Assembly (NCBI GenBank): GCA_036172245.1
Contig: JAYWIR010000103.1
Span: 62,001-126,000, forward strand
Source: Raillietiella orientalis
Taxonomy: Eukaryota
DNA length: 64,000 nt
Reading direction: 5' to 3'
Of the stretch, positions 18,700-64,000 are shown piece after piece. Numbering within the stretch: position 1 is the first letter of the stretch; each line of letters opens with the position of its first letter. The notes under the pieces were generated by a model. The model saw nothing but the letters and a program-made list of their open reading frames with translations. It was not told where the DNA came from and did no database searches. The translations under genes and the position numbers were made by a program.

Positions 18700-20580
18700 A
18701 GTACTGTGGCAATTGCGATGCTACATGGTACTTAAAAAAACGGTGATCTAACATGCAATGCCACTTATGTGGAAATAAAAGCCACATCCGCAAGGTGTGC
18801 CCAAGACGAGAAATCCCGGTCCCTCCCGCTGCCAAAAAGGCAAAGGGGAAACGGGCGGGAGAGACCAATACCATGAAGCAGGCCGTGAGGAGCCAGATGC
18901 CAGTCCCTAAGCCATCCCAGCAAACTTCCGTTGAGAGCACTACCGACGACGCTACTGACGGCGAAGTCTGGCAGACTGTACAGCCCAGAAGAAAGCCCGG
19001 GATTCCCGAACGAAGCGCAAGGAAAACAAAAACGCAGCGCGGAAAACCGTGCTGCGAAAAACTTCGCGCTTGGTCGGTAATATTAGAGCGTGTGGAGGCA
19101 CTCGATGCCGCCACCGGGGGAGCAATCCCCAATCTCGCGTCCGCCGAAGCCGCGACGGTGGATGGCGAACGCTCTGGGGAAACAGAGGGGGAACCGTGCG
19201 CCGCGCTCGACGCGCTCGAGGAGGCCGCCTTCCAGCAGGAGGTGGAAGAACTCGAGGCAGAACTGCAAGGCCGTAAGAAGAACTCCTGAAAAGGCTTACA
19301 AAGGCCGGCCGCGAGAAAGGCTCCGGATGCAGGTGAGGCCGAACCGGATGCCGGAAGTATGTGCTCCTCAACGGAGGCGCAACCAAAGAAGACGGGACGC
19401 AAGTCCCAGAATCTCAGGAGGCGCATACGGATCAAGAAGGAGGAGGATGAACTGGCACCCGAGGGGGAAGCCAGCAGCGTGGGAGGCGAGGGTGGGAATC
19501 TCTCATTTCTCGACACCGTGCAGCTGGCGACCCCCATGGACTAGGAAGTACAGGTGGGTGAATCCTCCCTTTCTCTGTAAGGCCCTGACGAAGACTCGGC
19601 CCCCATGGAGGAGGGAGAAGCGGTGCGCGACGCACCCCCTCTTCCTAGCGTCCTGCCCGACAAGGTGGCGGGAGCCCCATTGCCACTTTCCCAGGATTAA
19701 CACCTGGGCTCGCCTGTAGCCGTAGGATCGGCATAGTCTGCTTGAACGTCAATGGATGTGCGACGACGGCAACAGGCGGGATACGGCCGATACCGTGCAT
19801 GACTCCGACCTGGCACTCCTGCAGGAGATCCACGTGATCACCAGGGAGAGCGCCGAAGAGATGGAGAGGATCACAGGGCGTCGTCTGTATTAACAATGCG
19901 GCGCTCTCAACACCTGTGGCGTGGCGTTTTTTATGAAGCTAGCAGTCACCGCAGTTGTCAAGGGCGTACGCTTCGACAAGGACAGTCAGGTTGGCCAGCT
20001 CATCCATGGGAGGTCCGACTCCATAGACCTCGTCGAGAGTAACGTGTATGCTACGAGCGGAGGATGCGGGTACGTGGAACGTTCTCTGTTCCTCGAAACC
20101 TTGATGCGCGACTGGCTGGCGGATACAAACGTACGCAAAGTGCATCTGATCGCTGGGGATTTCAACATCCGCCTGCTCTCAGGTGTGCCTTGCGAGCAAA
20201 AAGACGCAGCCAACGAGCTGTGAGCTGCTATGCGCACGCGCAACTTGTTGGGGGACCTACCGGAAATGATGCAAAGCGTAGACAACGTCTTCCTTGACGC
20301 CGACCTGTGCCCACGGGTCGGCAGACGAGGGAAACTTCCGTCGACTCTATCGGACCATTTCCGGTTATATTCGAGGTTATGCCCCGCGACAAAGGACCAC
20401 CATCCAGAGCGTGGCGTGTGCACGAGGACTGGACGCGCATCTCAGGTGCGGCGGAACACCTCCGCCAAGTACTGGGAGGCGTCATCCTCCGGAATCTCCA
20501 AGACTGGGACCGCATGAAAGCCAGGGTCCGGGAGTCCTGCAAGCAGTTCCCTGTGCACCGCCTGCCTCGGGAATTCGGTG
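18700..20580 (+). mobile_element. Decayed A-related element: ORF1 from the zinc knuckles onward + APE domain, broken at the GFG-equivalent site
   Basis: CHLCGNKSHIRKVC; TAACA junction at about 19698-19702; IAGDFN; ends PVHRLPREFG. Confidence 0.88.
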
Positions 20581-23360
20581 CTAACACCCGGGTACGCCCG
20601 GCGCATTTATTTAAAAACTCTACATAAGTAGTACGAGGCCCCACCATGGCCGTAAACACAGGACCTGTCGGAACACCAGGACGCAGCCAGGCGTGGCACT
20701 CTGCGGCAACGATAGGGGATGAGGGAAAAAACAAAAATAAAAATAAAAAAAAAAACAAACAAATAGAGTTTGGAGGGAAGGGTAGAAATCACTGGACGCT
20801 GTGAGGAGGGCCCATCTTCCGAAGGAAGCCCTCGAGGTGTCCGCATATTTCCCAGATGGGGCCATCGAGCAGCTATCCGCAAGAAGCGTACTGCATACTG
20901 GATGACGTTCTCTCGTTTTCGTCCACATCTCCGTTACTGGCGTCGCTCCATGCCGCCACGATGCCTCGGACGCAGCACAGGGCTGCGGGGGCTACGGCTG
21001 GCTGCAGAGCGTCCCGCAGGAAGAGGAGCCGGAGAACGTCTCTAGGTGCACTACCCGAAGGGAGCAGGAGGGTCGCCCCGGACCGTTCGCAAAGGAGTCG
21101 GAGGGCAACACAATCTACAATAAGGTGATGGAGCGACTCCCGCTCCCCGCACCTGGCACGCAAAAAATCCACAGTTTCCCTCGTCCAGTGGAAGCGGCGC
21201 GCGTTACAGGGAAGACCCCAGTGCAACAAAAGCAACGCAGACTCTTGCCACCTGAGAGGCAGGATCCTGGATTCATTCATCACCGGTGACCACTTCAGCT
21301 CATGCCTGGGGATGGCGATCAGCTCGCCCCATCTTGCTAATCCTCGCGGCTGGACGCTCGGGGTCGCGGCGTCAGACAGTTCTCCTGTTGTCCAGCCGCT
21401 TATCAACTTCTCCCGTCCCTCGATGCAGCAGGAGACCTGCCACCTTGGTGTCCGGCTGCTGTGAAGAGCCCTCCTTAGGAAGGGCAGCGCCGTAGCTAGG
21501 CAAGTCGCCTCTGCCCACGTGCTTCTTGCTGGACTCTCCAGGAGCTTCCGCAGCGTGCAGCGGGCTTGGGAGCTGCATCGGAGACGATTCCACGTCTCGT
21601 GGTTTCTCTGATTAACCACTGCTTACGTTCCAATATTCTCCTCCAGCCAGGCGACAAAGTTGGCGGGGCAGCAAACCATCCAGCTCTTCTCCTTGGACAA
21701 TGTTGCCATGCGCCCGAGCAGCAGACCGCATCTTCGCATCTTAGGGCCTGGGCACCGAAAAAAAGACGCGTCGCACAAGGACACACGGCTGGCCAGGAGG
21801 CGGGCCGGAATGAACCAAGAGGTTCTCAACATCTTCGCTGCAAAGGCGAGGGTTCGACATCGCAGCTGCTTCTTCACACGCTTTAGCGTCAGAAGGCTAT
21901 GACAACCGTCCCGACGCGGAGCGCATAAGTCCTTCAAAGGGAGTCTGGGCCTCGTTCTGCCCCAAAGGGCGATGCGGAGGATGTCGTTTGTCTTCTTCCT
22001 GGATTCCACAGTGGGGGGGCAAACAAAATGTAAGGGGAAAAGGATGGCGGCCGCGAGTACGTTCTAAACCGAAGCCCGCTCCGGCAAGTGAAACTTGCTT
22101 ACGAGGAACGGGCCGATCGCCGTCTCGACATTTTAGAAGCAGCTCGACCGCGTTTCCGCCTGGGAGTAGTCCTCCAACCGCACATCAAGGTACTTGAAGC
22201 ACTTCGCCGTGAAGATCCCCAGACGTACCCAGTCCTGCTGCCCTGCCCACGCCGCACCTACTGGCACCACCGACGACTTCGCCCTGTTAACCTGCAGTCC
22301 GGTCCCGCGGCTGAGCAGATCGAAGAAGTCTCCGACCGCCTTTGCCGGGGTAGACATTGGCAACAAGCGCAGATTATCGTCGGCATAGGCTGATACGGCG
22401 GCCGTGCCGGGACACGAACTCGGCAAGGGGGCCAAAGTCACCCTGTACGCTCTCAGCACCAACTCAAAGTAGGTACTAAAGAGCAGGGGGCTGAGGCTAT
22501 CTCCCTGACTTATGCCCCACCGCACCGGCACGCCATACACCTTCTAACTGCTGAAAGAGACGGTAATCATCGCGTTCCGCCAGCAAGAGCGCAGGTAGGA
22601 AATCAGGGAGGGTGGGAAGCCTATGCGAACCAGGAGCTCAAAGAGGAGTTCCTGGTCTACACAGTCAAACGCTTTATGGAGATCGACTGCGAGCGCTGAG
22701 GCCCCCTTCCCCGCCCAAGGGTCCCTTCCCAGCCCGGCTGGCGGCCACAATGTGGGGTTGCCGACTTTCCCTATCCCTTTCTTTTCTCTTTTCTGGAGGT
22801 GCACCCATGTGCTTGCGAAGAAGAGGTTGGCATCCATACTTCGCCCGGGAACAGCATAAGTCTGCTCCGGGCTAATTACGGATTCTGCCACCTGCCCCAG
22901 ACGCGAAGCCCATAGCCCTGCTATCAACTTAGCGTCCGTATTCACGATCGTGATCGGACGCCAGTTCTTTAAATTCCTGAGGTCTCCTCCTTTCGGAAGG
23001 AGCCTCACTCTGGCTGACCGAAACGAGGCGGGTACATCGCCTCCATCTCGGATCAGCCTTGTCAACTCAAGCACCAGAGGTGCCAACTCTGCCGCGAAGC
23101 ATTGAACAAACTCCTCAGGCAGGCCGTCCTCCCCTGGTGCTTTCCGCCTCTGGAGCCTTTTGATACCGGCGAGAATTCCGCCGGTGGTAAAAGGCTCGTC
23201 GAGGCTTTCCTTCTCCTCCTCCCCTATTGCCGGGGCACCGTTCGGAAGCAAGCGCCGGGAGGCATCTTGGTCCGGGGGCGCCCTGGCGTAAAGGTAGGAA
23301 CAAAAACGCCTCAAGAGGTGCCGTATTCTAGCCGGAGCCGAGTGCTCCCGGCCTTGGTCG
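20581..23360 (-). mobile_element. A-type element (A5), 3' part: ORF2 pseudogene + 3' UTR
   Basis: RT motifs at 22133-23340; ORF2 stop at about 20789; terminal hairpin at 20581-20612. Confidence 0.9.
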
Positions 23361-23364
23361 GTTT

Positions 23365-26492: not shown

Positions 26493-29400
26493 TTGGGGAG
26501 GGTTGCGTCGACGTTGTCGGACCATTCCCGGTTAATTTTCGAGATACGGCCTCGTGACAAGGGACCGCCATCCAGGGATTGGCGTCTGCCGGGGGACTGG
26601 ACGCGACTCTCAGGTGCGAAGGAACACCTTCGCGAATTCCTGAGAGGCGTCACCCTCCGCAGTCTCAAAGATTGGGACCTCTTCAAGGCGTCGGTCCGCG
26701 AGTTCTGTGAGCAGTTCCCCCTGCACCGCCTGCCCCCCGGATTTTGGGAGGGGGCTCGGAACCATAGGGCCTATTTGCAGGCCCGCCGGTACGAGAGGAC
26801 CCCCAATGTCCGTCGCCTGGCCGAATATCGAGCCGGGGCCGAGCGCCAAGCCTGGCAATCCGGGTCGGCCAGCTTGCTGGACGACCAGGGCCGGGAGCGA
26901 TCAACCCCACCCGCGATCAGGCACCTCGTGCGGCAGTATTATTCCTCCCTCTACGCTAGGGCACCCCCAGAGCATGACGCCTCGCGACTCCTGCTTCCGG
27001 ACGGAGGCCAGGCAATAGGGGAGGAGGAGAGGATCAGCCTCGACGAGATTTTATCTACCGGTGAAATTCTCGCCGGTATTAAAAGGCTTAAGAGGCGTAA
27101 GGCGCCAGGGGAGGACGGCCTGCCTGCGGAATATTTTCAATGCTTCGCGAAAGAGCTGGCCCCCCTGGTGCTCCAGTGGACCGGGCTGATCCGAAACGAA
27201 GGCGACGTTCCCGCCTCGTTTCGGTCATCCCGTGTGAGGCTCCTCCCTAAGGGAGGAGACCTGAGATCCCTAGGCAACTGGCGTCCGATCACAATTGTGA
27301 ATACGGACGCCAAGCTGGTCGTTGGACTGTGAGCTTCGCGTCTAGGACAGGTGGCAGACTCTATAATTAGCCCGGAGCAGACATACGCTGTTCCCAAGCG
27401 AAGTATGGATGTCAACCTGTTTTTCGCGAATACATGGTTCCATGTGCAGCGCTGCCTAAATGAAACTGGCGGAAAGGTTGACAACCCCACTTTGGGGCCG
27501 GCAGCTGGGCTGGGAATGGACACCCGGGCTGGGAAGGGGGCCCTAGCGATCGCGGTCGATCTCCATAAGGCGTTCGACTGCGTTGACCAGGAGCTACTGT
27601 TGGAGCTCCTAAGTCGCATGGGCTTCCCACCCTCCCTTCTCTCCTTCATGCGCTCCTAATGGCGCAACGCCATCCTTAACATCTGCTTTTCTAGACAACA
27701 GGTGTACGGCGTGCCGGTGCAGCGGGGCATACGGCAGGGCGATGGCCTCAGTCCCCTGCTCTTTAGCACCTACTTTGAGTTGGTGCTGAGAGCGTACAGG
27801 GTGACTTTGGTCGCCCTGCCCAGCTCGTGCCCCGGCACGCCCGCCGTAGCAGCATACGCCGACGACCTTCTGCTCATGTTGCCCATGTCCGCCCCGGCAG
27901 CCGCAGTCGAGGATTTCTTCGACCTGCTAAGTCGTGGGACTGGACTCCGGGTAAACAAGGCGAAGTCGTCGGTCGTACCGCTGGGTGCGACGTGGGTCGG
28001 ACGGCCTGACTGGATTCGCTTGGGGATCCCTGCGGCCAGGTACCTGAAGTACCTGGGTGTCCCGTTGGGGGATTTCTGCCTCGCAGAAGCGTGGTCAGGT
28101 CGTCTCCAAAAGGTAGAGTTGGCAATCGGCCCGTTCCTGGAAGGCAAGTTTCACTTGCCGGAACGGGCCGCGGTGTGGAACGCGTTCGCGGCTCCCATCC
28201 TCCGCACCCTGCTTTTTGTTTGCTCCGTCCCCCGTGACATTAAAAAGAGGACCAAGGACCTATTCCGCATCGCCCTCTGGGGCAGCGGGAGGCCACGTGT
28301 GCCTCTAGATGACTTATGCGCTCCTCGTCGGGACGGCAATCTCGGCCTCCTGACGCTGGAGCGCCTGGACATACAGCTGCGATGGCGCACCCTGGCCATC
28401 GTAGCAAAGTCATGGAGCACCCCTTGGTGCGTTCCGGCTTGACTCCTCGCCAGCCGTGTGTCCAGGACGCAAGGACTCGCGTCGTACCTTCTGTGCTCTG
28501 GCAGGAAGGTCAGAAGATGCGGCCTTCTCCTTGGGCGCATGGAAGCCCTGGTCAGAGACAACGGCTGGACGGTATGCAGCCCCGCCAACTCCTCCGCCTG
28601 GCTGGAGGAATCCGTTGCGACGTAAGCCAAGCTGAACCTCCAGACTTCCCCGGACTGGAACCGCCGGCGATTCGGCCCCAACGCCTGCTGCACACTGCGG
28701 ACTACTCTGGAGTGTCCCGCCAAAAGCACGTGGGCGGAGAGTACCCCTCTAGCTTCGACCCTGCCTTTCCTACGAAGGGCTTTAACCAGCGGCCGCAAGC
28801 CAAAGTGGCAAGTCTCCTGCCGAATCGCAGGCAAGGAAAAAAAGATCAACGGTTGGACCATGGGAGAACTGGCGGATGCCACGACCCCGAGTGCTCTCCC
28901 TCGTGGACTTCGTCGATGGGGCGAGCTGCTCGGCATCCCGACGGATGACCTGAAGTGGCCCCCAATACTGATAGGATCCAGGCTTCTCCCCCTGAAGTGG
29001 CAAGAGTCGGCGCTGCTGCTGTTGCACTGGGGTCTACCCTGCAACACGCGCCGCTTCCACTGGACGCGGGGGAGTGTAACGCCTGAGTGTGAAAGGTGTG
29101 GGAAGCGGGAATCGCTCCCCCACCTACTAGTTGACTGTGCTGCCCTCCGACCCCTGTGGGAACGGTTCGGGACGACCTTCGGGCTCCCAATGGGCACCAC
29201 GCCCAGAGACGTTCTTCCGCCCCTCTGCGTGCGGGACGCCCTGCAGCCCGCCGCAGCCCTCGCAGCTTTCTGCTGCATCCGGGGCATCGTGGCGGCATGA
29301 AGCGACATTCGCGACGAAGGAGTGGATGCCAACGTGAGGGATGTCATCCCGTATGCGGTCTGCTTCATGCAGAGAGCAGCGAGATGGCCCCATCTGGGAA

Positions 29401-29678
29401 ACATGAAGATGGAACTAGAGGGCATCCTGCGAAGGATGGACCCTCCTCTAAGTGGAACGTGATCCCTTCTCCTCCCTCCAAACTCTTTTTGTTTTCCTTT
29501 ATATTTATTTTTAATTTTGTTTTGATCCCTATCCCCCTCCACAGCCGAGGAGCGTCACGCTGGGCTGCGTCCCGGCGTCCCGGCAGGTCCGGTGTTGTGT
29601 GGCCGTTAGTGGGGCCTTGTACTACGTTTTCTTGTAGAGCTTTATACAATAAACGCCCCGGGCGTACCCGGGTGGAAA
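26493..29678 (+). mobile_element. 5'-truncated A-related element (subfamily B): ORF2 pseudogene + 3' UTR
   Basis: Runs from RVASTLSDH through YADD and CERCGKRESLPH to the stop at 29460-29462; several nonsense codons; terminal hairpin 29648-29678. Confidence 0.92.
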
Positions 29679-32294: not shown

Positions 32295-32524
32295 ACGCTC
32301 CGGAATCTTCATTGAAACCCGGGTGCGCCGGGACGTTTATTCTAACGAATAAACTTATACAATCTGTGACTGGACCAGTAGTCCAGCCACGCCCTGGAAA
32401 GATATAGCCTGCCGGGCTACCGGTGCGCAGACCGGCGCGGTCGACCTCGGCAGCAGAGGGGAGGGGGAACGAAACAAAAAGAAAACAAAAAATAAACAAA
32501 AATCAGGGAGGGAGCGGGAAGGAA

Positions 32525-35500: not shown

Positions 35501-36108
35501 TGATCAAGGTACACGTGATCGATGCTGATTTCCATGGCCGTGTCCCCGGCCAACAAGTTGCGCGTGTTCATTTCTGCGCACAACTCGTTGACGCGGTCGT
35601 TCAGTGTATCCGCCGCACCTGAAAGCAGGCGCAGGTTGAAATCACCTGCGATCAGGTGCGCTTTGCGAACTCCTGCATCGGTCAGCCAATTGCGTCTCAG
35701 GGCAAGGTAGAATTCCCTTCTTGCCTTCGCCCTGAACGCGTTATTTCCGCTAGGAGCGTATAGGTTGGTGACGACCAGGTCGATAGAGTCGGACCAGCTG
35801 AGAGTCAGCTGACCGACGCGACCTGCATCATCGAACCGAACGTCCTTTATTGCGGTCTCGATGGCTGGCCGAAGCAGGAAGGCGACACCGCTTGATTTCG
35901 CGGTGCCGCAACGCCACAACAGCCGCCCACCCGAGATCCGTTCGATCTCCCGGGCTTGATCTGCGGAGATTACGTGGATCTCCTTCAGCATCACCAGGTC
36001 GAAGGATGCCAGGGTGGCGGCCACGTCACGCCTCTTGCCGTCGTCGCTTAGCCCGTTCACGTTCCAACAGGCGATCAGAAGACGACGGCGAGAGGCGATT
36101 CCCGGCAT
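32525..36108 (-). pseudogene. ORF2 (APE-RT-CCHC) of C2, several frameshifts/stops
   Basis: ORF pieces 34984-36108, 33973-34911, 33059-33664 and 32525-32848 are colinear with the open C3 frame. Confidence 0.92.
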
Positions 36109-37766: not shown

Positions 37767-37848
37767 TTCTGCCTAATCCTCCACCCACACCACGCACAAG
37801 CACCAACGGAAATGGAACTCAGCAGCAACGAAATAACACGTCCCCTCG

Positions 37849-41440: not shown

Positions 41441-41531
41441 CGAGTGGACGTGTTTTTCCTTCGCTCCCGAGTGAGTCGACAGGAAGCGGTTTTTTCTATT
41501 GTTGTTTGGTGTGGAACATCGTTGGTGTCCG

Positions 41532-46876: not shown

Positions 46877-47193
46877 TCCCTTCCCTGCCCTCCAACTTCT
46901 TTTTGTTTGTTTCTTTTTATTTTACTTTTTGTCTCATCCCCATCCCCCTTTGCTGTCGGGGAGTGCCACGCCGGGCTGCGTCCCGGTGTCCCGACAGGTC
47001 CTGTGTTTACGACCGTGGTGGGGCCTTGTACCACGCATGTAAAGTTTATCAATAAACGCCCCGGGCGTACCCGGGTGGCAACGCCGAATAACCGCTGTGG
47101 AGAGCGGACGTGCTTTTCCTGCGCTCCGCCTGCGTGGCAAAGCGAGTGTTTTTTCTTCTTAAGTGATTTGTGCGTGCACATCGTCGGTGTCCG

Positions 47194-49068: not shown

Positions 49069-49534
49069 CACCTGGGCTCGCCAGTCGCCGTCGGATTCGC
49101 GCGGCCTGTTGGAACGTCAACGGGCTGCGCGACGACGGCAACAGGCGAGATACAGCCGACACCCTGCGTGAGCTCGACCTGGCGCTGCTGCAGGAGATCC
49201 ACGTGATCACCGCGGCAGACGCCCAGGAAATCGAGACGATCGCGGGGGTCGGCTGTATTGGCGATGCGGCCTCCGCAACACCTGCGGGGTCGCGTTCTTC
49301 GTGAAGCCGGCCATCGACGCTGCCGTAAAGGGCGTGCGGTTTGATGACGACGGTCGGATCGGTCAGCTGATTCTCAGCTGGTCCGACTCGATCGACCTAA
49401 TCGTCACAAACGTGTATGGCCCCAGCGGCAAACAGGGTTACCGCGACCGCACCAGGCTGCTGGAAACCCTGAAGCGCGACTGGCTGGCGGATACCAATGT
49501 GCGAAAGGCTCACCTGATAGCGGGAGATTTCAAT
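49068..49534 (+). pseudogene. ORF2 5' segment (APE) of A2
   Basis: CWNVNGL...IAGDFN; 1-nt loss in a G run near 49245. Confidence 0.88.
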
Positions 49535-49613
49535 CGAGTGCGGACGTGTTTTTCTTCGCTCTCGTCTCCGTGCTTTCATCCGCTTCATCTTGGCGTCGTA
49601 CATTTTGACGACG

Positions 49614-51536: not shown

Positions 51537-54500
51537 TGCGGGGAATCGCGTCTTCTCGTCGTCTGTCCGTAACGTGTTGGAACGTGAACGGACTGCAGAA
51601 CGACGAGAAGAGGCGATTAGTAGCCAACGCCCTGCGCCCCTTCGACCTCGCGCTCCTGCAAGAGATTCACGTAATCTCCGACGAGCAGGCAGCCGAAATC
51701 GAGGAGCGCGCAGGCGGAACGCTACATTGGCGGTGCGGCGGCGCACACACGTGCAGCGTCGCGTTCCTCGTAAGAGGAAAAATAGCGGAAGCGGTGCGTA
51801 GTGTTCGTTTCGATGACAACGGACGGATAGGCCAGCTTTTCATCAAGTGGTCCGAGTCCATCGATCTCGTCGTTACGAACGTCTACGCGCCGAGTGGCTC
51901 TCGCTACCTCGAAGAAAGAGTAGCTTTCTTTGGTGAGGTGCAGAGCCAGTGGCTCAACAGCTCCGGATTCCAAGTGGCGCACCTCGTCGCTGGGGACTTC
52001 AACGTCCGCCTGCTCTCCGACGATTGGAGCCGCCCGAGGGAGCGCGCGCTGCCCATCGAGATGTGCGCGTCCGTGCACGCCGCCAACTTGATGGTCAGCG
52101 AACCTGGAATGGAAAGATCGCTCGATCACGTTTTCCTCGATGAAAACCTGCATTCGCGTGTGGGTAGGAGAGGAAGATTGTTGACTGAGCTTTCTGACCA
52201 CCACAGGTTGGAGTTTGAGATCCTTCCGCCAGGCAGGGGGCCTCCGTTGCAAAGCTGGAGGATGCAGGCGGATTGGCTTAGCCAACCGGAGGCTGCGGAG
52301 CATCTACGTGTATACCTCCGAGGCTTTGCCATTCAAGAACTTGCGGACTGGGACGATCTCAAAAGATCTGTCCGCGAGTTCTGTTGCCAATTCCCCTTGC
52401 ACCGGCTTCCACGCGGTTTCGGAGAGGGCGTGGCCAACAGTAGAGACTTTCTGCAGGCCCGCACGTTTTCGAGACGCGCGGATGTCGGGCGTCTCGCAGA
52501 GTACAAGGCGAGGGCCGAGCGCCAGGTCTGGCAGTCCGGAGCAGCATGCCTGTTGGACGACAAGGGCCAGGAATGTTCGGCCCCAGCCGAAGTACGCCGC
52601 ATTGTGTGACGCTACTACTCCTCGCTCTACGCGGAATCCCCGACGGAGGATATTCTTTCTGAGATACTCCTGTCTCAGGATGCTCGTGTTGTCGGCGAGG
52701 AGGAACGCGAACGTCTCGACGAGCCCTTCACGGCGGATGAATTTTCGTCCGCAATCGCTGGGCTGAAGAGACGAAAGGCGCCAGGCGAGGATGAGCTCCC
52801 TGCAGAGTTTTATCAGTGCTTTGCAGTGGAGCTCATTCCCTTGATGCTTAAACTCGCGACGCTGATGAGTGAATCCGGGAATGTCCCTGATTCCTTCCGC
52901 TCTGCGAAGGTGCGTCTCCTGCCGAAAGGCGGAGACTTGCGCCAACTTAACAACTGGCGTCCGATCACCTTGGTGAACTCGGACGTCAAGTTGTTTTCCA
53001 AGCTGTGGGTCGCGCGGTTAGGAAGTATCGCGGAATCTGTGGTGAGCCCGGAACAAACCTACGCGGTTCCGGGACGATCCATGGAGGCGAACATCCTTTT
53101 CGCGCGTACATGGATGCAGCTGCAGGATGTTGTGGCGCAGCAAAGCCAGGCTGCTGCGAAAGTCACTGCCGCAGGCAAAAAGAACAGGCGCCGACGGCAG
53201 GAGGGAACGCCAGGTGCCTTGGCGGTCGCAATCGATCTCCACAAGGCGTTCGACTGCGTAAACCAGAAGCTGCTTTTGGAGCTTATGGAACGCCTTGGGT
53301 TCCCGGCGCAACTCCTGCTGTATTTGCGCGCGTGCTGGCGCCACGCGCTAACCTGCATCACTTTTAGCGGCTGCCGCGTGTATGGTATTTCCGTTCGTAG
53401 GGGCATCCGACAGGGCGACAGCTTAAGCCCGTTGCTCTTCAGCATCTTCTTTGAGTTGGTGCTAAGAGCATACAGGCTGACACTGTCTCACTTGCCAAGC
53501 TCCTGCCCGGGAACGCCTGCCGTGGCCGCCTACGCTGATGACCTGCTTCTTCTGCTCCCCATGTCCACCCCGGCGTCCAGTGTCGAGGATTTCTTCGACC
53601 TGATTCGTCGGGGAGCGGGCGTGAGCGTGAACAGACAGAAGAGCGTGGTCGTTCCTGTGGGTACGTCGTGGGAGGGGCAGTCCGACTGGATCCGCCTGGG
53701 GATCCCCACGGGCGGGTACTTTAAGTACCTTGGCGTTCCGTTGGGCGCTTTCGGCGCAGCAGAAGCGTGGGCGGACTGTCTTCAGAAAGCAGAGTTGGCC
53801 ATCAGCCCGTTCTTTAACGGCAAGTTTACCTTGCAGGAACGGGCGACTATTTGGAACACCTTTGTGGCCCCCCTCCTCCGTCCCCTGTTTTTTGATTTGG
53901 ACCCCCCCTATGCGGCAAAACAGCGGGCTAAGCGCCTGCTCAGGAACGCTCTCTGGGGTCCGGCGAGATCCAGGATCCGCCTTAAAGATTTGTCAACTCC
54001 GCGTCGGGATGCTGGTTTGGGTATCCTGACAATGGAGCGAATCGGACTGCAGGTGCAGTTCCGACTGCTGGCACTGTGTGCCCAGCTATGGACATCCCCC
54101 CTGTGTGTGCCAGCTCGCATTCTCCTGCGGAGATGCGCCGGCAGCGGAGGATTTCTCTCGCTTTGGCCGGGCACTCAATACAGGAAGCGGGGTTTCGGTT
54201 TTCCATTGCGGCAGTTGACCGCACTTCTGGAAGCACACTCTTGGATCTCCTGCCGCCCAATGAACTTTGAAGCTTGGCGGCAGGAGTCTGTTGAATCCTG
54301 GGCGGCGTTCCAAGGAATACGCTCTGAAGATCTTCGCCCCCTGCGTCAATTTTTTCCACGATCCTTGGAAGAAGTACTGCAGGACGAGGTGAAGTTTTCT
54401 ACCCTGGCTGTCACGCCTCGTGCCGCAGCGCTGTCTGCCCTCAGGGCAAGAAACCACAGTTACCAACCGGCGAGGTGGGAGGTTTCCTGCACGATAGCGG

Positions 54501-55129
54501 GAAGAACCAAACTCCTTGGCACCTGGAAGACAAGTGAGTTGGCGGACGCCGCCACTCCTCGTGTTACTGCATAGGGACTCCTCCGGTGGGCAGAAGAACT
54601 TGCTGTCACCCCCGAAGAACTTGTAGTCCCTCCACAGTGTATGGACAGTTCGCTGCTCCCCCTTGCTTGGAAACAAGCCGTGCTGCTTTTCGTTCACTGG
54701 GGTTTTCAGTGCAACGAGCGTTGGCATCGTGACTCGGGGGGACTTGCGTCTGCGAACTGCGTTCGGTGCGGATCGACGGAGTCGATTCCGCACCTACTTC
54801 TGGACTGCGGTGTCCTACAAGGACTGTGGCGTAGGCTGGCAACGGCACTATTGCATCCCGTGGACACCGCAAGAGACTTGCTGCGACGATTCTTCACGCC
54901 GAGCGGGCTTTCACTAAGCGCAAGGATTGCAACCATCGGTTGCATACGCGCGATAGTTTCCGTCCGCCAGGCGTTGGTAATCAACGGACAGCACCAAGAG
55001 GTAATCAGCAAAGCATCCTTCTACATAGGAGCATCCGCTAGATGGCCTCATTTGACAGAGGAGACAAAGAGGAATCTCGCCGCAATACACCGCCGGTTTA
55101 CACACCCTCATCAGCGGCCAACCCGGTGA
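51536..55129 (+). pseudogene. ORF2 of D, single frame of about 1197 codons with two in-frame stops (52607, 54572)
   Basis: Pieces starting at 51536, 52826 and 54641 share one frame; APE, RT (YADD) and CVRC..H...C motifs present. Confidence 0.93.
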
Positions 55130-55450
55130 TCATTGCCCTACCCTCCATAAACTAAATTTGGATTTTCTTTTTACACCCGCGTCCCCATAGGCTCCGAAAC
55201 ATTTCAGGTGCTCATCGTATAAATCCCCGTGAGTACGGAGCCTAACCAAAAACCCGTTAATCTTCCCTCCAGTTTTTGATTTTTGTTTGTTTCCCCTCAT
55301 TCCCCCGACGCTGCGAGCGGTTTGTTTACCAGGCCTGCGTGCCGGTAATTTTTCAATGTTCTCTGTCGTTCTGTTGGTTAAGGACATTGTCCCTGACCAG
55401 TTTATTATTATTAATAAACGCCCCGGCGTGACCGGGTGATAAATTTCAAT

Positions 55451-58400
55451 CTCCGCCTGCTAACAGGTGAGCCGGAAACACAAGTGAACGCGATGAACGA
55501 GTTGTGCGCCGCCATGCGTGCGCGCAACTTGTTCGCGGGTGAGAGGGGAATGGTCCGCAGCATCGACCACGTCTTCCTCGACGCTGACCTGTGTTCACGG
55601 GTCGGCAAACGGGGGAGGGTTGCGTCAACGTTGTCGGACCATTCCCGGTTAATTTTCGAGATGCGGCCTCGCGACAAAGGACCGCCATTCAGAGACTGGC
55701 GTCTGCCGGGGGACTGGACGCGACTCTCAGGTGCGAAGGAACACCTTCGCGAATACCTGAGAGGCGTCACGCTCCGGAATCTCCAAGACTGGGACCTTTT
55801 TAAGGAATCAGTCCGGGAATTCTGCGAGCAGTTCTCCCTGGACCGCCTGCCCTCCGGATTCGGCGAGGGTCCTCGCAACCATCGGGCGTATTTACAGGCC
55901 CGTAGGTACGAGCGAACCCCTAATGTCCGTCGTTTGGCCGAATACCGCGCCGGGGCCGAACGCCAAGCCTGGCAATCCGGGTCGGCCAGCTTGCTGGACG
56001 ACCAGGGCCGGGAATGTTCGTCCCCGGCGTCGGTACGGCATCTCGTGCGGAGTTTTTATTCCTCCCTTTACGCCAGGGAGCCCCCGGATCGAAACGCCTC
56101 TCGACGCTTGCTTCCGGATGGCACCCCGGCAATAGGGGAGGAAGAGATGGAAAGCCTCGACGAGCATTTTACCACCGGCGAAATTCTCGCCGGTATCAAA
56201 AGGCTCAAGAGGCGTAAAGCTCCAGGGGAAGACGGCTTGCCTGCGGAGTTCTTTCAGAGCTTCGCGGAAGAGCTGGCACCCCTGCTGCTTAAGTTGATCA
56301 GGCTGATCCGAGACGAAGGCGATGTTCCCGCCTCGTTTCGGTCAGCCAGAGTGAGGCTCCTTCCGAAAGGGGGAGACCACAGGAATTTAAAGAACTGGCG
56401 TGCGATCACAATCGTGAATACGGACGCCAAGTTGATAGCAGGGCTATGGGCTTCGCGTCTGGGGCAGGTGGCAGAATCCGTAATTAGCCCGGAGCAGACT
56501 TATGCTGTTCCCGGGCGAAGTATGGATGCCAACCTCTTCTTCGCAAGCACATTAGTGCACCTGCAGAGAAGAGAGAAGAAAGGGATAGGGAAAGTCGGCA
56601 ACCTTACATTGGGGCCACCAGCCGGGCTAGGAAGGCACCCCCGGGCAGGGAAGGGAGCCCTAGCGCTCGCAGTCGATCTCCGGAAGGCGTTCGACTGTGT
56701 AGACCAGGAACTCCTCTTGGAGCTCCTGGGTCGCATGGGCTTCCCACCCTCTCTGATTTCCTACCTGCGCTCTTGCTGGCGGAATGCGATGATTACCGTC
56801 TGTTTCAGTGGACAGAAGGTGTATGGCGTGCCGGTGCGGCGGAACATAAGGCAGGGCGATAGCCTCAGCCCCCTGCTCTTTAGCACCTACTTTGTGTTGG
56901 TGCTGAGAGCGTACAGGGTGACTTTGGCCCCCTTGCCGAGCTCGTGCCCCGGCACGCCCGCCGTAGCAGCGTACGCCGACGATCTTCTGCTCTTGTTGCC
57001 AATGTCCACCCCGGCGAAGGCGGTCGGAGACTTCGATCTATTCAGCCGCGGGACCGGACTGCAGGTTAACAGGGCGAAGTCGTCGGTTGTGCCAATAGGT
57101 GCGGCGTGGGCAAAGCAGCAGGACTGGGTCCGTCTAGGGATCCCCACGGCGATGTGCTTGAAGTACCTTGGTGTGCCGTTGGGGGACTACTCCCCTGCGG
57201 AAGCGTGGTCCAGCTGCCTCCAAAAAGTCGAGACGGCGATCGGCCCGTTCCTGGAAGGCAAGTTTCACTTGCCGGAACGGGCCGCGGTTTGGAACGCCTT
57301 CGCGGCCCCCATCCTCCGCCCCTTGCTTTTTGTTTGCCCTCCCACCGTGGAATCCAAGAAAAGGAAGAAGGACCTCCTCCGTATCGCCCTTTGGGGCAAG
57401 GGGAGGCCCGGAGTCCCACTGAAGGACTTGTGCGCTTTGCGTCGGGACGGCGGTCTTGGCCTCCTGACGCTGGAGCGCGTGGAGAAGCAGCTGCGGTGGC
57501 GAACCCTCGCCATCGCAGCGAAGATGTGGTGCACCCCTTGGTGCACTCCAGCCCGCCTCCTGGCCAGCCGTGTGTCCCGTTGCGATGGACTCGCGTCTTT
57601 TCTTCTCAGTCGTGGCCGGAAGATTCGAAGATGCGGCCTACTGCTCGGGCGCATGGCAACATTGGCCAAGGAGAACAGCTGGATGATTTGGTGCCCCGCC
57701 AACTCCCCCGCCTGGCTGGAGGAAAATATTGGAACGTGGGCAGTGGTTAACAGGACAAGCCACGAGACGTGGAATCGTCTCCGATGCAGCCCCTACGCCC
57801 GCTGCACGCTGCGGAATCTTCTGGAAAGTCCAGCAAGATGCACGTGGGCAGAGACGACCTGTCTAGCTACGGCGCTGCCCTTCCTGAAGAGGGCACTTCA
57901 CAGCAGCCGGACGCCAAGGTGGCAAGTCTCCTGCTGCATCGAGGGACGCGAAAAGTTGATCAGCGGCTGGACAACAGGAGAACTGGCAGACGCCACGACC
58001 CCGAGCGTCCAGCCGCGAGGACTAAGAAGATGGGGCGAGCTGCTGGCCATCCCTATGGATGTGCTGAAGTGGCCCCCGCTTCTTCAGGAATCCAGGATCC
58101 TGCCCCTTAAGTGGAAAGAGTCGGCGTTGCTGTTTTTGCATTGGGGTTTACCCTGCAACGCACGCCGCTCTCACTGGACAAGAGGAGTTGTGGATCCTGC
58201 GTGTGTCAGGTGCGGAGAGCGGGAATCGCTCTCCCACCTTATTGTGGACTGTGCTGCCCTTCGTCCCCTTTGGCAACGGTTTGGGACGATCCTCGGTCTC
58301 CCAACAGGCAGTTCCCCTAGAGACGTTCTTCGGCCCCTCTTCGTGAAGGACGCCCTGCAGCCAGCCGCAGCCCTTGCAGCCTTGTGCTGCGTCCGAGGCA

Positions 58401-58576
58401 TCGTGGCGGCATGGAGCGACACCAACAAGGAAGGAGTGGGTCAACACGCGAGGGATGTCATCCCATATGCCCAACGCTTCTTGCGAAGAGCTGCCGGATG
58501 GCCCCAACTGGGGAATATGCAGACTGACCTCGAGGGCTTCGTTCGACGGATGGGCCCTCTCCACAGCGAACAGTGA
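55451..58576 (+). pseudogene. ORF2 3' segment of A2 (more than 1000 codons open): APE end, RT, CCHC
   Basis: 1046-aa ORF in the track; inactivated by the D insertion. Confidence 0.92.
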
Positions 58577-58796
58577 TCCCTTCCCTGCCCTCCAACTTCT
58601 TTTTGTTTGTTTCTTTTTATTTTACTTTTTGTCTTATCCCCATCCTCCTTCGCTGTCTTGGATTGCCACGCCGGGCTGCGTCCCGGTGTCCCGACAGGTC
58701 CTGTGTTTACGGCCGTGGTGGGGCCTTGTACCACGCATGTAAAGTTTATCAATACACGCCCCGGGCGTACCCGGGTGATAACGCCGAATCCCTTGG

Positions 58797-61441
58797 CGAG
58801 TGGACGTGTGTTTCCTTCGCTCCCGAGTGAGTCGACAGGAAGCGGTTTTTTCTATTGTTGTTTGGTGTGGAACATCGTTGGTGTCCGATGGCAGCAATGC
58901 CTGAGTACACCACGATGGAGGTAGGTGTGAGGGAGGCTTGCCCACCCCCACAGCCTAGAGAATCAGGGGCGTCCGCCCCGGAATCGCCCTCGCCGCCCAA
59001 GGCGAGGAGCTGGAGCGCCATGGTGGCCTCGCCGAACGCGGAAACCGTGGACGAGATGGCGGCTTACCGGGCAGCTGGGTACAAGCCCAGCTTGGTGTAT
59101 CAGGTAGGCCCCTTATTTGACGGAAAAACGGCACGCGCGTTTTCGAAAGCGCTGCAAAACGCCGGAGTTAGAGAACAAGATCTTGACGGTTTGTCCGTTC
59201 TCAGCGGAGGTCAGCGAGTCGAGGTGGTGTGCAAGGAGATCACCTTGGCTCAGACTCTGATCACCAACCCGTTGAACGTCGACGGCCGCAAGATCTTGCC
59301 GGTGACGATGGACCGCTCCGTGGTGGTCCATCTCACTGGAATAACTAGCCGTATGATTCGCTCTGCGGTAGCACAAGAACTTCGGAAGTTCGGCGAGGTG
59401 CACGCTCTGTGGCCTAAGCCAACAATCTTTGAAGGCTTCAATAGCCATTTCGGAGGTCAGGCTGCAGCGCGGGTAACCGTGAGTAAGGATTGTGGGCTTC
59501 CCCACAAGCTGGAGGTCGCGCAAGGGAGCGTGGACCTCTGGTACGTGGGAAAGCTCCGGTATTGCGGCTACTGCGATACCGTAGGACACCTTCGCAAGAG
59601 GTGTCCTAACATCCAATGCTACATGTGCGGGGAGAAGGGCCACGTTCGACGTGTGTGCCCAAAACGCCCCACCCCGGTTCCTCCTGCAGCGAAAAAGGCG
59701 CAGGGGAAACGCGCACTAAAGGTCGCAAAACCTATGGCGGACGATGGCCGGCTGAAACTGCCAGATCCTCAACCTCCAAAAGAAAAGACGGAGGGTAAAC
59801 CTTCCCAAGAGGCGGAAGGTGAAGAGGGCTGGCAACTTGTAGCCGCCAGAAAAGAGAAAAAAGCTCCTTGAAAGGAGAAGAAAGAAAAGTCGACCGCTAA
59901 GGCAAAAAAACCCGGGCCGCGTTCGAAAACCGTACGCGAGTGCACGGTGGCATTGGAACGTATCGTCGTTCCTGAAGATGCCACCCGGGGCGACGAACCT
60001 CCCCTTGCCGTTTCCGATGCGCCCGAAGTTCGCGACGGCGAACCCTCTGTGCAAACAGAGGGTGAGCCGCGCGACGGGCCGGTCGACACCGAGGACGCCG
60101 CGTTCGCGCAGGCGGCGGAGGAGCTCGCGGCCACGCTGGCGGAGCGTGAGAACCGCTCACGCAAGGCCGTGCGAAGGCCTGCTCCCGCGAGAAAGGCCCC
60201 CACAGGTGAGTTGGACCTGGGGGCCCGAAGCACATCCTCCTCCTCGGAGGCACCCCCCAGGAAGTCGGGACGCAAGTCCCAGAAACCCAGGAGGCGCCTC
60301 TTCTCCACCAGCGAGGAGGAGAAACCGGAAGGAAGCGGCAGCGTGGGAATCCCGGAGGGGGAATACCCACGTCCGGAAGCCGTCGAGTCTGCCACCCCCA
60401 TGGAGGAGGGAGAGCAGGGGGGTGAAGTCCTCCCTGCAGTCGCGAAACCTGAGCAGCCCGAACCCATGGAGGAAGGCGAACAGGTAGGCGCGACTCCACG
60501 TGCGGGTGATCCGGCCGACGCGCCGGCAGCGATGGAGGAGGAGGAAAAGGTGCCTTCAGTACCTGTCCCTCCTCCCCCTCCACCTAGCGTCCCGTCCCAG
60601 CAGGTGGCGGACGCCGCATCGCCGTTTTCCCTGGACTAACACCTGGGCTCGCCAGTCGCCGTCGGATTCGCGCCGCCTGTTGGAACGTCAACGGGCTGCG
60701 CGACGACGGCAACAGGCGAGATACAGCCGACACCCTGCGTGAGCTCGACCTGGCCCTGCTGCAGGAGATCCACGTGATCACCGCGGCAGACGCCCAGGAG
60801 ATCGAGACGATCGCGGGGGGTCGGTTGTATTGGCAGTGCGGCCTCCGCAACACCTGCGGGGTCACGTTCTTCGTGAAGCCGGCCATCGACGCGGCCGTGA
60901 AGGGCGTGCGCTTCGATGACGAAGGTCGGGTCGGTCAGCTGATTCTCAGCTGGTCCGACTCGATCGAATTGATCGTCACGAATGTGTACGCCCCCCGCGG
61001 TAAACAGGGATACAGCGACCGTACCAGGCTGCTGGATTCCCTGAAGCGCGACTGGCTGGCGGACACGAACGTGCGGAAGGCTCACCTGATAGCGGGAGAT
61101 TTCAATCTCCGTCTGCTACCAGGTGAGCCAGAAACACAAGAGAACGCGATGAACGAGTTGTGCGCCGCCATGCGTGCGCGCAACTTGTTCGCGGGTGAGA
61201 GGGGAATGGTCCGCAGCATCGACCACGTCTTCCTCGACGCTGACCTGTGTTCACGGGTCGGCAAACGGGGGAGGGTTGCGTCGACGTTGTCGGACCATTC
61301 CAGGTTAATTTTCGAGATGCGGCCTCGTGACAAGGGACCGCCATCCAGGGATTGGCGTCTGCCGGGGGACTGGACGCGACTCTCAGGTGCGAAGGAATAC
61401 CTTCGCGAATACCTGAGAGGTGTCACGCTCCGGAATCTCCA
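58797..61441 (+). mobile_element. Subfamily A copy A3, 5' part (ORF1 58888-60639 with one in-frame TGA at 59869; APE 60639-61441), interrupted by C3
   Basis: 5' CGAGTGGACGTGT; breaks at GVTLRNL. Confidence 0.93.
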
Positions 61442-64000
61442 TTGAAACCCGGGTGCGCCGGGACGTTTATTCTAACGAATAAACTTATACAATCTGTGAC
61501 TGGACCAGTAGTCCAGCCACGCCCTGGAAAGATATAGCCTGCCGGGCTACCGGTGCGCAGACCGGCGCGGTCGACCTCGGCAGCAGAGGGGAGGGGGAAC
61601 GAAACAAAAAGAAAACAAAAAAATAAACAAAAATCAGGGAGGGAGCGGGAAGGGATCACAGTCTGCTGGGAGGGCCCGTCATCCTCTGGAGGATGCCGGC
61701 AAGCTGTTTCTGCTTGTGTGGTTCCAGATGGGGCCATCGCGTCGCCATCCTGAGAAAACGGGCAGCATACACGTTGGCATCCCTGTCGCTGGATCCTCCC
61801 GTCGCTTTGCTCCATGCCACGACGATCCCGCGTAGGCAGCACAGGGCTGCAAGCGAGGCCGCTGGAGGCAGGGCGTCACGGACGAAGAGGGGGCGCAAAG
61901 CGTCTCTAAGGTTGCCTCCGGGGATCCCCGGGGCTGCGGCAAAGCGTTCCCACAAGGGACGGAGGGCAACACAATCCACTAACAGGTGGGGGAGGTATTC
62001 CCTCTCCCCGCACCTGACACAATTAGGGTTGACACCCCCCCGCGTCCAGTGGTGTCGGCGGGCGTTGCAAGGAAGCCCCCAATGCAACACCATCAGTGCC
62101 GACTGTTGCCACATCATGGGGAGGGTGTGCGAGTCCATGAGCACCGGGGGCCACTCGAGATGTTCCTCTGGAACATCCAGTAGCTCTCCCCAGCGCAACA
62201 GTCCATTTGGGGTGGTCCTCGGGGTCGCAGCGTTGGTGAGCTGACCCGTTCTCCAATCCACGATCTTCTTTGCCCTGCTGTCGATCTTGACAGTAACCTC
62301 CCATTGTGCCGCGACGTCGCTGCCCAGATGTTCCCGTAGGGTAGGCAGTACCGCAGCAAGGGAGGTTCTTTGTGCCCACGCTCTCCTTCGGGGATTCTCG
62401 ATGATTTCTCGGAGCGTGCGGCGGGCATGCGGCCCGAACAGAGCTATTCGCTCGTGTTGCGGGCTCTGCTCCTGAATCATCGCCCACGTGCGGACGGTTT
62501 CCTGCAACCAGGCAGGGCCGTTCGCGGGGCGTACGAGGATCCGCGCCGAGTTGTTCTTCACGAGCTTGGCCGCCCTCCGAAGTTGAAGTCCGCAGTGGCA
62601 GATGGGGCTTCGGAGTGCAAAGTAGGACGAGAGTCCCGCATTGCCGGTGGCCCGCTCGACGAGGAGACGTGCAGGGAGGCACCAAGGGGTGCACCAATTT
62701 CCTGCCATAAAGGCAACAACTCGGAACTGGAGCTGTAGCTCCAGCCGCTCCAACGTCAGGAGGCCCAGACCACCATCCCGAAGAAGAGCGCACAAGTCCG
62801 AAAGACGGACTCGGGGCCTCCCTCTGCCCCAAAGGGCGATCCTCAGGAGGTCCTTCGTCCTCTTCTTTGACTCCGCTGAGGGGGGGCAAACAAAAAGCAA
62901 GGGGCGAAGGAGGGGGGCCGCAAACGCGTTCCACGCCGCGGCCCGTTCCTGCAGGTAGAACCTGCCGTCCTGGAACGGGCCGATCGCCGCCTGAGCCTTC
63001 TGAAGGCAGCCGGACCACGCTTCCGCAGGGGAGTACTCCCCCAACGGCACACCAAGGTACTTGAAGTACCTCACCGTGGGGATCCCCAAACGGACCCAGT
63101 CCTGCTGCCCTGCCCACGCCGCTCCGACTGGCATTACGGACGACTTCGCCCTGTTCACCGTCAGTCCTGTTCCACGACTCAGCAGGTCGAAGAAGTCCTC
63201 GACCGCCGAGGCCGGGGTGGACATAGGCCGCAGCAGCAGAAGATCGTCCGCGTACGCCGAAACCGCAGGCGTACCGGGGCAATCGCACGGCAGGTGCGCA
63301 AGAGTCTCCCTATACGCTCTCAGCACCAATTCGAAAAAGGCGCTAAAGAGCAGGGGGCTCAGGCTGTCTCCCTGCCGTATGCCGCGTCGCACCGGTACTC
63401 CGTGCACGGTTTGCCCGCTGAAAAGAACATTAATGAGCGCGTCGCGCCAGCTGGAGCGCAGGTAGGCCAACAAAGAGGCCGGGAAGCCCAAGCGTTCCAG
63501 AAGCTCCAGCAGGAGATTCTGGTCGACGCTGTCGAATGCTTTACGCAAGTCGACAGCGACCGCAAGGGCTCCCTTCCCCACCCAACCGTTCCGTCTCCCG
63601 CCAACGGACGCACCGGAATTCCGGCTGCTCAATAAGCCCCTTCCTTGTTGGAGCTCTAACCATGTGGAAGCGTGGAACAGGTTCGCCTCCGTGCTCCGCC
63701 CGGGAACAGCATAAGTCTGTTCCGGGCTGATGAAGATGTTGGCGACCCGTCCCAGGCGCTCTGCCCACATCTTGGCTATCAACTTGGCGTCCGCATTCAC
63801 TATTGTGATGGGACGCCAGTTGTTCATGCTCCTTAGGTCTCCTCCCTTCGGGAGGAGCCGCACCTTTGCTGAACGAAACGAGGTGGGAACGTCACCTGTT
63901 TCACGGATCAGCAAGGTGAGCTGATGTACCAGGGGAGTAAGCTCAGCCGCGAAAGTTTGGTAAAACTCCGCGGGCAGGCCGTCCCCCCTGGAGCCTTCCG
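61442..64000 (-). mobile_element. Subfamily C copy C3, 3' part; continues beyond the window
   Basis: 3' UTR nearly identical to C2; target copy at 61425-61441. Confidence 0.94.
61656..63914 (-). CDS. ORF2 of C3 (partial, 752 aa open): RT + C-terminal CCHC
   Basis: NWRPITIVN, DLRKAFD, RQGDSLSP, YADD, CVRCGEREYLPH; apparent 1-nt loss near 63985. Confidence 0.85.
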   Translation of the reverse strand: MLIRETGDVPTSFRSAKVRLLPKGGDLRSMNNWRPITIVNADAKLIAKMWAERLGRVANIFISPEQTYAVPGRSTEANLFHASTWLELQQGRGLLSSRNSGASVGGRRNGWVGKGALAVAVDLRKAFDSVDQNLLLELLERLGFPASLLAYLRSSWRDALINVLFSGQTVHGVPVRRGIRQGDSLSPLLFSAFFELVLRAYRETLAHLPCDCPGTPAVSAYADDLLLLRPMSTPASAVEDFFDLLSRGTGLTVNRAKSSVMPVGAAWAGQQDWVRLGIPTVRYFKYLGVPLGEYSPAEAWSGCLQKAQAAIGPFQDGRFYLQERAAAWNAFAAPLLRPLLFVCPPSAESKKRTKDLLRIALWGRGRPRVRLSDLCALLRDGGLGLLTLERLELQLQFRVVAFMAGNWCTPWCLPARLLVERATGNAGLSSYFALRSPICHCGLQLRRAAKLVKNNSARILVRPANGPAWLQETVRTWAMIQEQSPQHERIALFGPHARRTLREIIENPRRRAWAQRTSLAAVLPTLREHLGSDVAAQWEVTVKIDSRAKKIVDWRTGQLTNAATPRTTPNGLLRWGELLDVPEEHLEWPPVLMDSHTLPMMWQQSALMVLHWGLPCNARRHHWTRGGVNPNCVRCGEREYLPHLLVDCVALRPLWERFAAAPGIPGGNLRDALRPLFVRDALPPAASLAALCCLRGIVVAWSKATGGSSDRDANVYAARFLRMATRWPHLEPHKQKQLAGILQRMTGPPSRL

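Follow-up and report, generated by a model that had tools for sequence, protein, structure and literature searches.

We analysed a window of 64,000 nucleotides from Raillietiella orientalis (assembly GCA_036172245.1, contig JAYWIR010000103.1, positions 62,001 to 126,000 of the forward strand; all positions below count from the first letter of this window). The window is filled with long interspersed nuclear elements (LINEs) that are inserted into each other. Mapping onto three full-length references, E (41426–47089, 5.66 kb), C (32312–37848) and D (49536–55442), gives a LINE share of ~87% by our own estimate. The GC content is ~58–64% across most of the window with an AT-richer patch at 12–18 kb, and self-comparison yields dozens of long matches on both strands with 65–97% identity. 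These elements integrate site-specifically at targets in the second open reading frame (ORF2) of their sibling elements. The window directly shows how the junctions are built, that targets are duplicated, that sister copies have unoccupied sites and that the events are independent.

The elements are LINEs of the L1/Tx1 group with an apurinic/apyrimidinic endonuclease (APE) and a reverse transcriptase (RT). In E, ORF1 carries a CCHC knuckle, and ORF2 carries the Exo_endo_phos endonuclease, RVT_1 and a weak zf-RVT match. Pfam families PF03372 and PF00078 are present in A copies (E, el1, H3), in C and in D, and the APE-like endonuclease lies N-terminal to the RT in ORF2, as is characteristic of the L1 group. 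The CCHC knuckle of ORF1 is seen by Pfam in E, H2 and H3; no Pfam family is found in ORF1 of C (513 aa) or of D (671 aa). The zf-RVT matches after the RT score 18.4 and 17.7 bits, under the curated cut-off of 27.5. An exhaustive HMMER search returns a single close relative with 66% identity, followed by thousands of RT proteins at ~30%. The second-best library match, P0012, has a family that is 62% identical to Xenopus Tx1. ORF2 scores 173 bits against Xenopus Tx1 (BLASTP) and 148 bits against human L1 ORF2p (phmmer, E-value 2e-42), scores that come from different programs and are not strictly comparable. Among the Atlas matches of the closest homologue, generic RT clusters are on top, and a weak lead to a Tx1-named cluster appears at rank 22 with a score of 0.88. 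With Tx1 proteins as the best named matches of ORF2, the affinity of the elements is probably Tx1-like.

Sequence identity was compared in two blocks, one of 1.26 kb in the RT and one of 0.43 kb in the endonuclease, and separates at least seven sub-lineages in the window. The A core comprises E, H2, H3, el1 and b_ins, with 86–98% identity within the group; hostA is too short for the two blocks and was placed in the A core by its 95% identity to E. B, A2, old A and F are represented by one copy each (85, 80, 72 and 68% identical to A, respectively), and D by one full copy (65% to A). The C group contains Cfull, Cend and C1 with 95–97% identity, and the single copy of C' is 83–84% identical to C.

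The 3' end motif AATAAACGYCCC occurs eight times with at most one mismatch, compared to 0.40 occurrences expected in the window. Two further 3' ends, at 20581 (−) and 10799 (+), lie outside the motif matches and are degenerate or were missed; the one at 10768–10799 surfaced in a loose fuzzy search that otherwise returned mostly noise. This gives ten complete 3' ends. All ten meet LINE sequence and none adjoins unique DNA. Six adjoin ORF2 of another element directly (10799, 20581, 29678, 38516, 55442 and 61442), and at the other four (6382, 32312, 47081 and 58781) a spacer of 16–21 nt leads to the conserved 5' end of the next copy (...GGACGTG...). A preliminary description of the window, made from its letters alone, had counted nine 3' ends, all at ORF2 or at a short spacer; both contexts hold, but the count is ten. 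The 3' end is laid out as ...AATAAAC, G, a GC hairpin and GGGT(G/T), followed by ~4 variable, A-rich bases, with GAAA, GCAA, ATAA, TTAG and TCAA found after ...CCGGGTG. Neither a poly(A) tail nor an A run is present at any of the 3' ends. Four copies are 5'-truncated at differing points. The target-site duplications (TSDs) measure 9 bp for D, 16 bp at the site used by A elements and 16–17 bp at the site used by C elements.

At the A site, the inserters A and A2 enter antisense after GGGATTCGGNG. The 3' junctions at 20580/20581 in host old A and at 29678/29679 in host C1 fall in the same column of an alignment of the endonuclease–RT linker from eleven copies. Host old A ends ...GGGAATTCGGTG, host C1 ends ...GGGATTTGGGG, and in both an A-type 3' end then follows antisense. 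A third use of the site lies at 41426–41441, with E (41442–47081) as inserter and the minus-strand copy B (38516–41425) as host. Here the 16 nt CGCCGAATCCCTTGGC precedes the 5' end of E and is continuous with B, and B resumes in the same place in the linker alignment. Antisense A-type elements had been described earlier at one nucleotide of C1 (29679), E (41426–41440) and an old A relative (20580). C1 and old A indeed share their column, but E is the inserter and B the host. The A site is represented by three junctions in three host lineages (old A, C1 and B). By our own calculation, once the first junction is given, a second independent one would hit that nucleotide and strand in a 5.6 kb element with a probability of ~3 in 11,000. 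A search with the 16-mer gave two exact matches, upstream of E and in the spacer between H2 and H3. Cfull is uncut at the A site and carries the exact 16-mer. The site lies in a motif present in all sub-lineages, and A-type elements have also entered two A-like hosts, old A and B. A-type elements can enter any lineage, A-like ones included.

C elements enter antisense ~80 nt upstream of the A site with a TSD of ~17 bp. H3 ends ...CACGCTCCGGAATCTCCA at 61441 and is followed by an antisense C 3' end, and hostA starts ...ACGCTCCGGAATCTCA at 37849, adjoining the 5' end of Cfull. In host coordinates, H3 (3' junction 61441/61442) reaches 16–17 nt past the point where hostA starts (5' junction 37848/37849), and this overlap is the TSD. 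The two positions, put forward in the preliminary description as a second fixed nucleotide that C elements enter antisense in A hosts, are thus one site viewed from two sides. The distance of ~80 nt between the A and C sites within the endonuclease–RT linker, claimed there as well, is confirmed by the linker alignment and by the bounds of the Pfam endonuclease and RT matches, between which both sites lie. Unoccupied C sites are found in el1 (2330–2345), E and H2. C's own sequence differs from the C target at 7 of 17 positions by our count on the linker alignment, and no match with up to three mismatches is found at the homologous place of C copies. C can enter only A-type elements. The spacer between Cfull and C1 equals the C target with one mismatch (32295–32310). 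Since this spacer is A-type sequence and C's own sequence differs, C1 must first have entered an A-type host, with Cfull adjoining it later. A second near-match to the C target (1–2 mismatches, strand sense as in the real site), also unoccupied, is located near the 3' part of ORF2 (46106–46121 in E, 57806–57821 in H2).

Insertion is observed in both directions between A and C. A2 entered C1 at 29678/29679, and Cend entered H3 at 61441/61442 and Cfull entered hostA at 37848/37849. The reciprocal targeting proposed for these two lineages is borne out to this extent, but it is no special pairing, with the A site family-wide and B, D and G having sites of their own. As the A site is family-wide and C is without its own site, the reciprocity is one part of a wider web.

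D is inserted in sense orientation in H2, within the codons of the endonuclease motif GDFN, and both of its junctions are visible. Its TSD is the 9 bp ATTTCAATC at 49527–49535 and 55443–51. The window contains exactly five copies of this sequence: two flank D, and E, H3 and el1 each have one, unoccupied, at the homologous position. In D itself, the GDFN codons deviate from the 9 bp target at three of nine positions. The 3' end of B lies antisense in hostA at E 3298 (site S5), in a conserved RT motif at the start of the RT domain, and the exact 16 nt flank is unoccupied in Cfull, Cend and H2. B (38516–38546) and D (55413–55442) have an identical 26 nt 3' terminus, although their bodies are 85% and 65% identical to A. 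Because the two lineages share this terminus yet use different sites, the 3' end seems to be exchangeable and appears not to set the target.

The 3' end of G at 10799 lies antisense in a D-like endonuclease fragment (10800–11041) at site S1 (E coordinate 2034), and the junction 10799/10800 is homologous to E nucleotide 43474. Contigs of the public sequencing run X1, most of which span a few hundred bases, were mapped to 32305–47092; the run contains 0.51 of the sampled words. All 30 bins of this interval are covered in X1; runs X2 and X3 cover 4 and 1 of the 30, at a low-complexity spot. In one X1 contig, the sequence of an A-like host runs up to 43474 and continues via TTAT into a 3' end. With a depth of 4.3 and a shorter side of 31 nt, it weakly suggests that the same G-site nucleotide is used in a different host. 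Among the X1 joints listed, only this one (43474 to 38521) is usable. Most of the listed joints, such as 32856 to 39056 and 34307 with 45169, link homologous positions of different copies and were read as cross-mapping.

Table 1. Elements, host fragments and spacers in the window, in order of position.
Feature	Positions	Strand	Description
el1	1..4970	-	A-core; 5' end 4970, 3' part beyond the window; 84% to E over E 6–4961; empty C (2330–2345), D (2663–2671) and A sites
C'1	4977..6360	-	5' part of a C-like copy; 5' end 6360; broken at ~C coordinate 1348
Spacer, 21 nt	6361..6381	-	Between the C' 3' end and the C'1 5' end
C'	6382..9195	-	3' part of a C-like copy; 83–84% to C in the RT region; 3' end 6382
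G	9206..10799	+	5'-truncated, D-like; 3' end 10799
old A	19166..20580	+	Host, 72–73% to E; cut at the A site
b_ins	20581..23360	-	A-core insert, 5'-truncated at E 2861; 3' end 20581 antisense in old A
F	23557–26451 region		Divergent, 68% identical; cut at E coordinate 2477; adjoins a D-like RT fragment (25879–26451)
A2	26495..29678	+	5'-truncated; 80% to A core; 3' end 29678 antisense in C1 at the A site
C1	29679..32294	-	5' half of a C copy, host of A2; 5' end 32294; 94.5% to Cfull
Spacer, 17 nt, TGAAGATTCCGGAGCGT	32295..32311	-	Cfull 3' end to C1 5' end; C-target remnant as in A-type hosts
Cfull	32312..37848	-	Full-length C; ORF1, endonuclease, RT; ORF2 in at least three frames; empty A and B sites
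hostA	37849..38515	+	667 bp A-core piece, 95% to E (E 2631–3298); cut left by C at the C site (TSD 37849–37864), right by B at S5
B	38516..41425	-	85% to A core in the RT region; 3' end 38516 antisense in hostA; body cut by E at the A site
A-site target copy, CGCCGAATCCCTTGGC	41426..41441	+	In host B, directly upstream of the E 5' end
E	41442..47081	+	Full-length A-core; empty C, D and G sites
Spacer, 18 nt, CGCCGAATAACCGCTGTG	47082..47099	+	Between E and H2; only the first 8 nt match the A-site target copy
H2 5' part	47100..49535	+	E 1–2313
D	49536..55442	+	Full-length, distant lineage (65%); in H2
H2 3' part	55443..58781	+	E 2305–5640, 93% to E
Spacer, 16 nt	58782..58797	+	Between H2 and H3; identical to the target copy upstream of E
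H3	58798..61441	+	A-core 5' part (E 1–2647); cut at the C site
Cend	61442..64000	-	C copy, 97% to Cfull; 3' end 61442 antisense in H3; extends beyond the window

The nesting is at least three deep: hostA holds B, B holds the E–H2–H3 array, H2 holds D and H3 holds Cend. Two of the four tandem spacers are a full target of their lineage, 58782–58797 exactly and 32295–32311 with one mismatch. Three of the four are remnants of the A or C target when the partial one between E and H2 is counted. This suggests that arrays grow by repeated entry into a duplicated target. For the tandem junctions only, an alternative is that head-to-tail pairs are made in one event, either through template jumping, with the RT passing from the 5' end of one RNA onto the 3' end of a second RNA, or from read-through transcripts. 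The R2 reverse transcriptase is known to jump between templates end to end, the E–H2 spacer is only partly target-like, and the C' spacer is unlike any site seen. A direct template jump, however, would not put full target copies of the own lineage into two spacers, and the tandem partners differ by 6–25%. We regard an origin in one event as unlikely for these pairs.

The junctions common to several copies have to be weighed against a spread of a few chance insertions by segmental duplication, unequal crossing-over or gene conversion in the repeat array. Tandem arrays are prone to unequal exchange, composite alignments cross the junctions (20099–23360 versus 30160–26882, 74%; 4977–9195 versus 30942–35121, 72%), and the 16 nt upstream of E are identical to the H2–H3 spacer. 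Yet identity at the A site is only 62% between the hosts (old A and C1) and only 77% between the inserts (b_ins and A2), and each pair includes a copy with a much closer relative that lacks the junction: C1 is 95.7% identical to Cfull, which is uncut there, and b_ins is 89.5% identical to E. The preliminary description had itself raised descent of the common junctions from one duplicated event as the case against its proposal. Comparison of identities does not bear this out, and the third host B belongs to another lineage again. As hosts and inserts at the same site come from different sub-lineages, segmental duplication does not explain the common junctions. The stretch over which Cend and Cfull are similar begins precisely with the element end plus the duplication, and the flanks beyond it are unrelated. 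H2 and H3 are 75% and 87% identical to E in their first 1.3 kb; since these values differ, the tandem array of three A copies was not made by duplication of a single unit. The spacers 6361–6381 and 32295–32311 are unrelated as well, and a spread by duplication is highly improbable in our assessment. Insertion could also be guided to the region as such, for instance through chromatin or a centromere protein, rather than to a sequence, with the coincident positions caused by local DNA structure or by selection of survivors. With ~87% of the window being LINE, any insertion here is expected to hit LINE. Passages of the literature place Zepp-like elements in clusters at putative centromeres (PMC8226300) and, in Chlamydomonas, one ZeppL copy between two protein-coding genes, off the native centromere (10.1101/2025.03.28.645958). 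Against this, nucleotide, strand and duplicated bases recur across hosts of different lineages, and the sites vary with the lineage of the inserter. Regional targeting may act in addition to sequence choice, but in place of it we consider it very unlikely. That the junctions are assembly artefacts of a collapsed repeat is barely credible. The region is highly repetitive, and X1 is the one run that contains it, at the word share and in the short contigs described above. The junctions are nevertheless precise, with duplications and complete element ends, their architecture recurs with diverged sequences, and X1 covers every bin of the interval to which its contigs were mapped.

We consider it likely that the window represents a nest of APE-endonuclease/RT LINEs with lineage-specific sites in the family's own ORF2, which forms self-renewing clusters. 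In the mechanism that we propose, the family would have split into sub-lineages, each with an APE endonuclease that nicks a different short sequence, and all target sequences would lie within conserved coding motifs of the family's own ORF2. Target-primed reverse transcription would leave a complete 3' end and a TSD of 9–17 bp. The duplication would re-create the target beside the new copy, and later insertions would adjoin earlier ones, giving head-to-tail arrays with target-length spacers. With other copies as the only abundant genomic targets, the elements would pile into clusters of their own making. We thus infer that the endonuclease sets the specificity, that the spacers stem from re-insertion and that clustering follows. 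Re-creation of the target by duplication would explain the two full and the one partial target spacers. With the sites placed in conserved codons, each new copy, whatever its lineage, would supply targets, which would make the clusters self-renewing.

Several observations weigh against this interpretation. The evidence comes from one 64 kb window and one short outside contig, and the ORF listing contains no copy in the window with an intact ORF2; the longest open frame, 1052 aa, is found within the 3' part of H2. Entry of A into C is seen once and entry of C into A two or three times, and the B and G sites are each represented by one in-window junction. The E–H2 spacer matches the A target in only the first 8 of 18 nt, and the 21 nt spacer between C' and C'1 has no other match in the window. 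On the 5' side, the expected other half of the host is found for none of the four truncated copies (b_ins, A2, C' and G). The non-tandem 5' junctions of full-length copies fit in three of four cases (E, Cfull and D). The exception is el1, whose 5' end lies at none of the five sites and in a C-like ORF1.

Fixed sites of several LINE lineages within one gene have a well-known precedent. R1 and R2 are unrelated LINE lineages in 28S rDNA; each has its own fixed site, with a few tens of bases between the two, and they disable the unit that they enter. Separate sites of several lineages in one multicopy gene and disabling of the target are shared with the window; the site specificity of R1 is mentioned in PMC1919474. 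The target of R1 and R2 is a host gene kept by selection, whereas here it is the elements' own ORF2, the supply of which depends on the elements. Keno, Dewa and Mutsu are target-specific LINEs of the Tx1 clade in addition to Tx1 itself. Targets of specific LINEs include rRNA, snRNA and tRNA genes, spliced-leader exons, microsatellites, telomeric repeats and transposons, as listed in passages of PMC4640811, and the target of Tx1 is given as the Tx1d DNA transposon in passages of PMC6719617. Tx1L of Xenopus is similar to the elements described here in being an APE-type LINE that enters a multicopy target sequence-specifically, and, going by the same two sources, Tx1 targets another transposon. 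The difference lies in the kind of target: instead of a DNA transposon or an RNA gene, the elements here enter the coding sequence of sibling LINEs, and several sister lineages each have their own site in one ORF.

In their nesting, the elements resemble Zepp. Zepp has poly(A) tails, and the elements in the window have none. In the passages of PMC8226300 and PMC3446292 drawn on here, Zepp nests in existing copies and forms tandem arrays mainly of 3' ends, and Zepp (Chlorella, Coccomyxa) and ZeppL (Chlamydomonas) form nested self-only clusters, as seen here, with one per chromosome. A fixed nucleotide, an antisense rule and lineage-specific sites are present in the window and do not appear in these passages or in those consulted on ZeppL, and ZeppL is presented as a single family in Chlamydomonas, in contrast to the several lineages found here. 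Head-to-tail LINE arrays of cooperating lineages are also formed by HeT-A/TART/TAHRE and by GilM/GilT of Giardia, according to PMC13534243 and PMC1635262. Such arrays are extended at the ends of chromosomes and involve no internal target sequence, whereas here we find target-length spacers and insertions mostly antisense within ORF2. In the literature searched, we found no description of sibling LINE lineages that each occupy a fixed site of their own in the ORF2 of the others; the primary Zepp papers lay outside that search. LINE nesting and target specificity as such are already known.

The window would offer a concrete mechanism at the nucleotide level, with lineage-specific sites in the codons of siblings and a target that is regenerated by duplication. 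If this were true genome-wide, it would explain the origin of self-only LINE clusters, candidate centromeric ones included. It would also provide a natural set of related APE endonucleases with different defined specificities, in which the evolution of specificity could be studied, and a case of competition and possible self-immunity between transposon lineages. More tentatively, and as a possibility that we would not favour at present, a guild of sibling LINEs may have divided ORF2 into private sites. Some of them (C, perhaps D) may have altered their own site and thereby escaped self-disruption while disabling rivals. As a by-product, such an arms race could form and maintain chromosome domains that consist of LINEs only, similar in type to those of Zepp or of centromeres, via sequence recognition alone.

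In single folds of the A, C and D 3' untranslated regions, AATAAAC pairs with an upstream GTTTAT (e.g. 47005–47081, 32312–32389 and 55362–55442). A longer hairpin of lineage-specific sequence precedes this pairing and the GC hairpin follows it. Single folds beat shuffled sequences for C (z −4.0) and D (z −3.0), not for A, B and G. An alignment fold of nine 3' ends gives 7 pairs and recovers only the last hairpin, with no compensatory changes. A metagenome scan for the 3' end motif returned 12 loci, none of which resembles the window in DNA or in ORF2 protein, and they were set aside as chance matches.

At 4955–4990, the complete 5' end of el1 adjoins ORF1 of the C-like copy C'1 in the same orientation, and this junction reflects either a different target or a deletion. 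The junctions of F and of the D-like fragment with their neighbours fit none of the sites. A 180 bp piece of A-type 5' untranslated region (23359–23538, 92% to E 47–224) is inverted against the truncated 5' end of b_ins. It looks like an inversion of the twin-priming type with an internal deletion, and the expected remainder of the host is not found beyond it. An Rfam search of the window gave no match. Out of ten ORFs in 9.2–25.4 kb searched against Pfam, nine are without a family, and one (13297–13692) has a weak match to DUF6165 (E-value 0.0067, 16.6 bits, cut-off 27). The patch at 12000–18000 has 41–48% GC and contains a degenerate TTAGG-like microsatellite (22.6 copies, 65% matches) and a decayed D-like RT fragment, at positions 13803–13916 and 16532–16855; it may be old, mutated LINE debris. 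In ORF1 of H2, a 57 bp unit is repeated 3.3 times (48392–48579), and this tandem repeat accounts for an apparent break at 48450–48490 and an overlap of 70 nt in the alignment to E.

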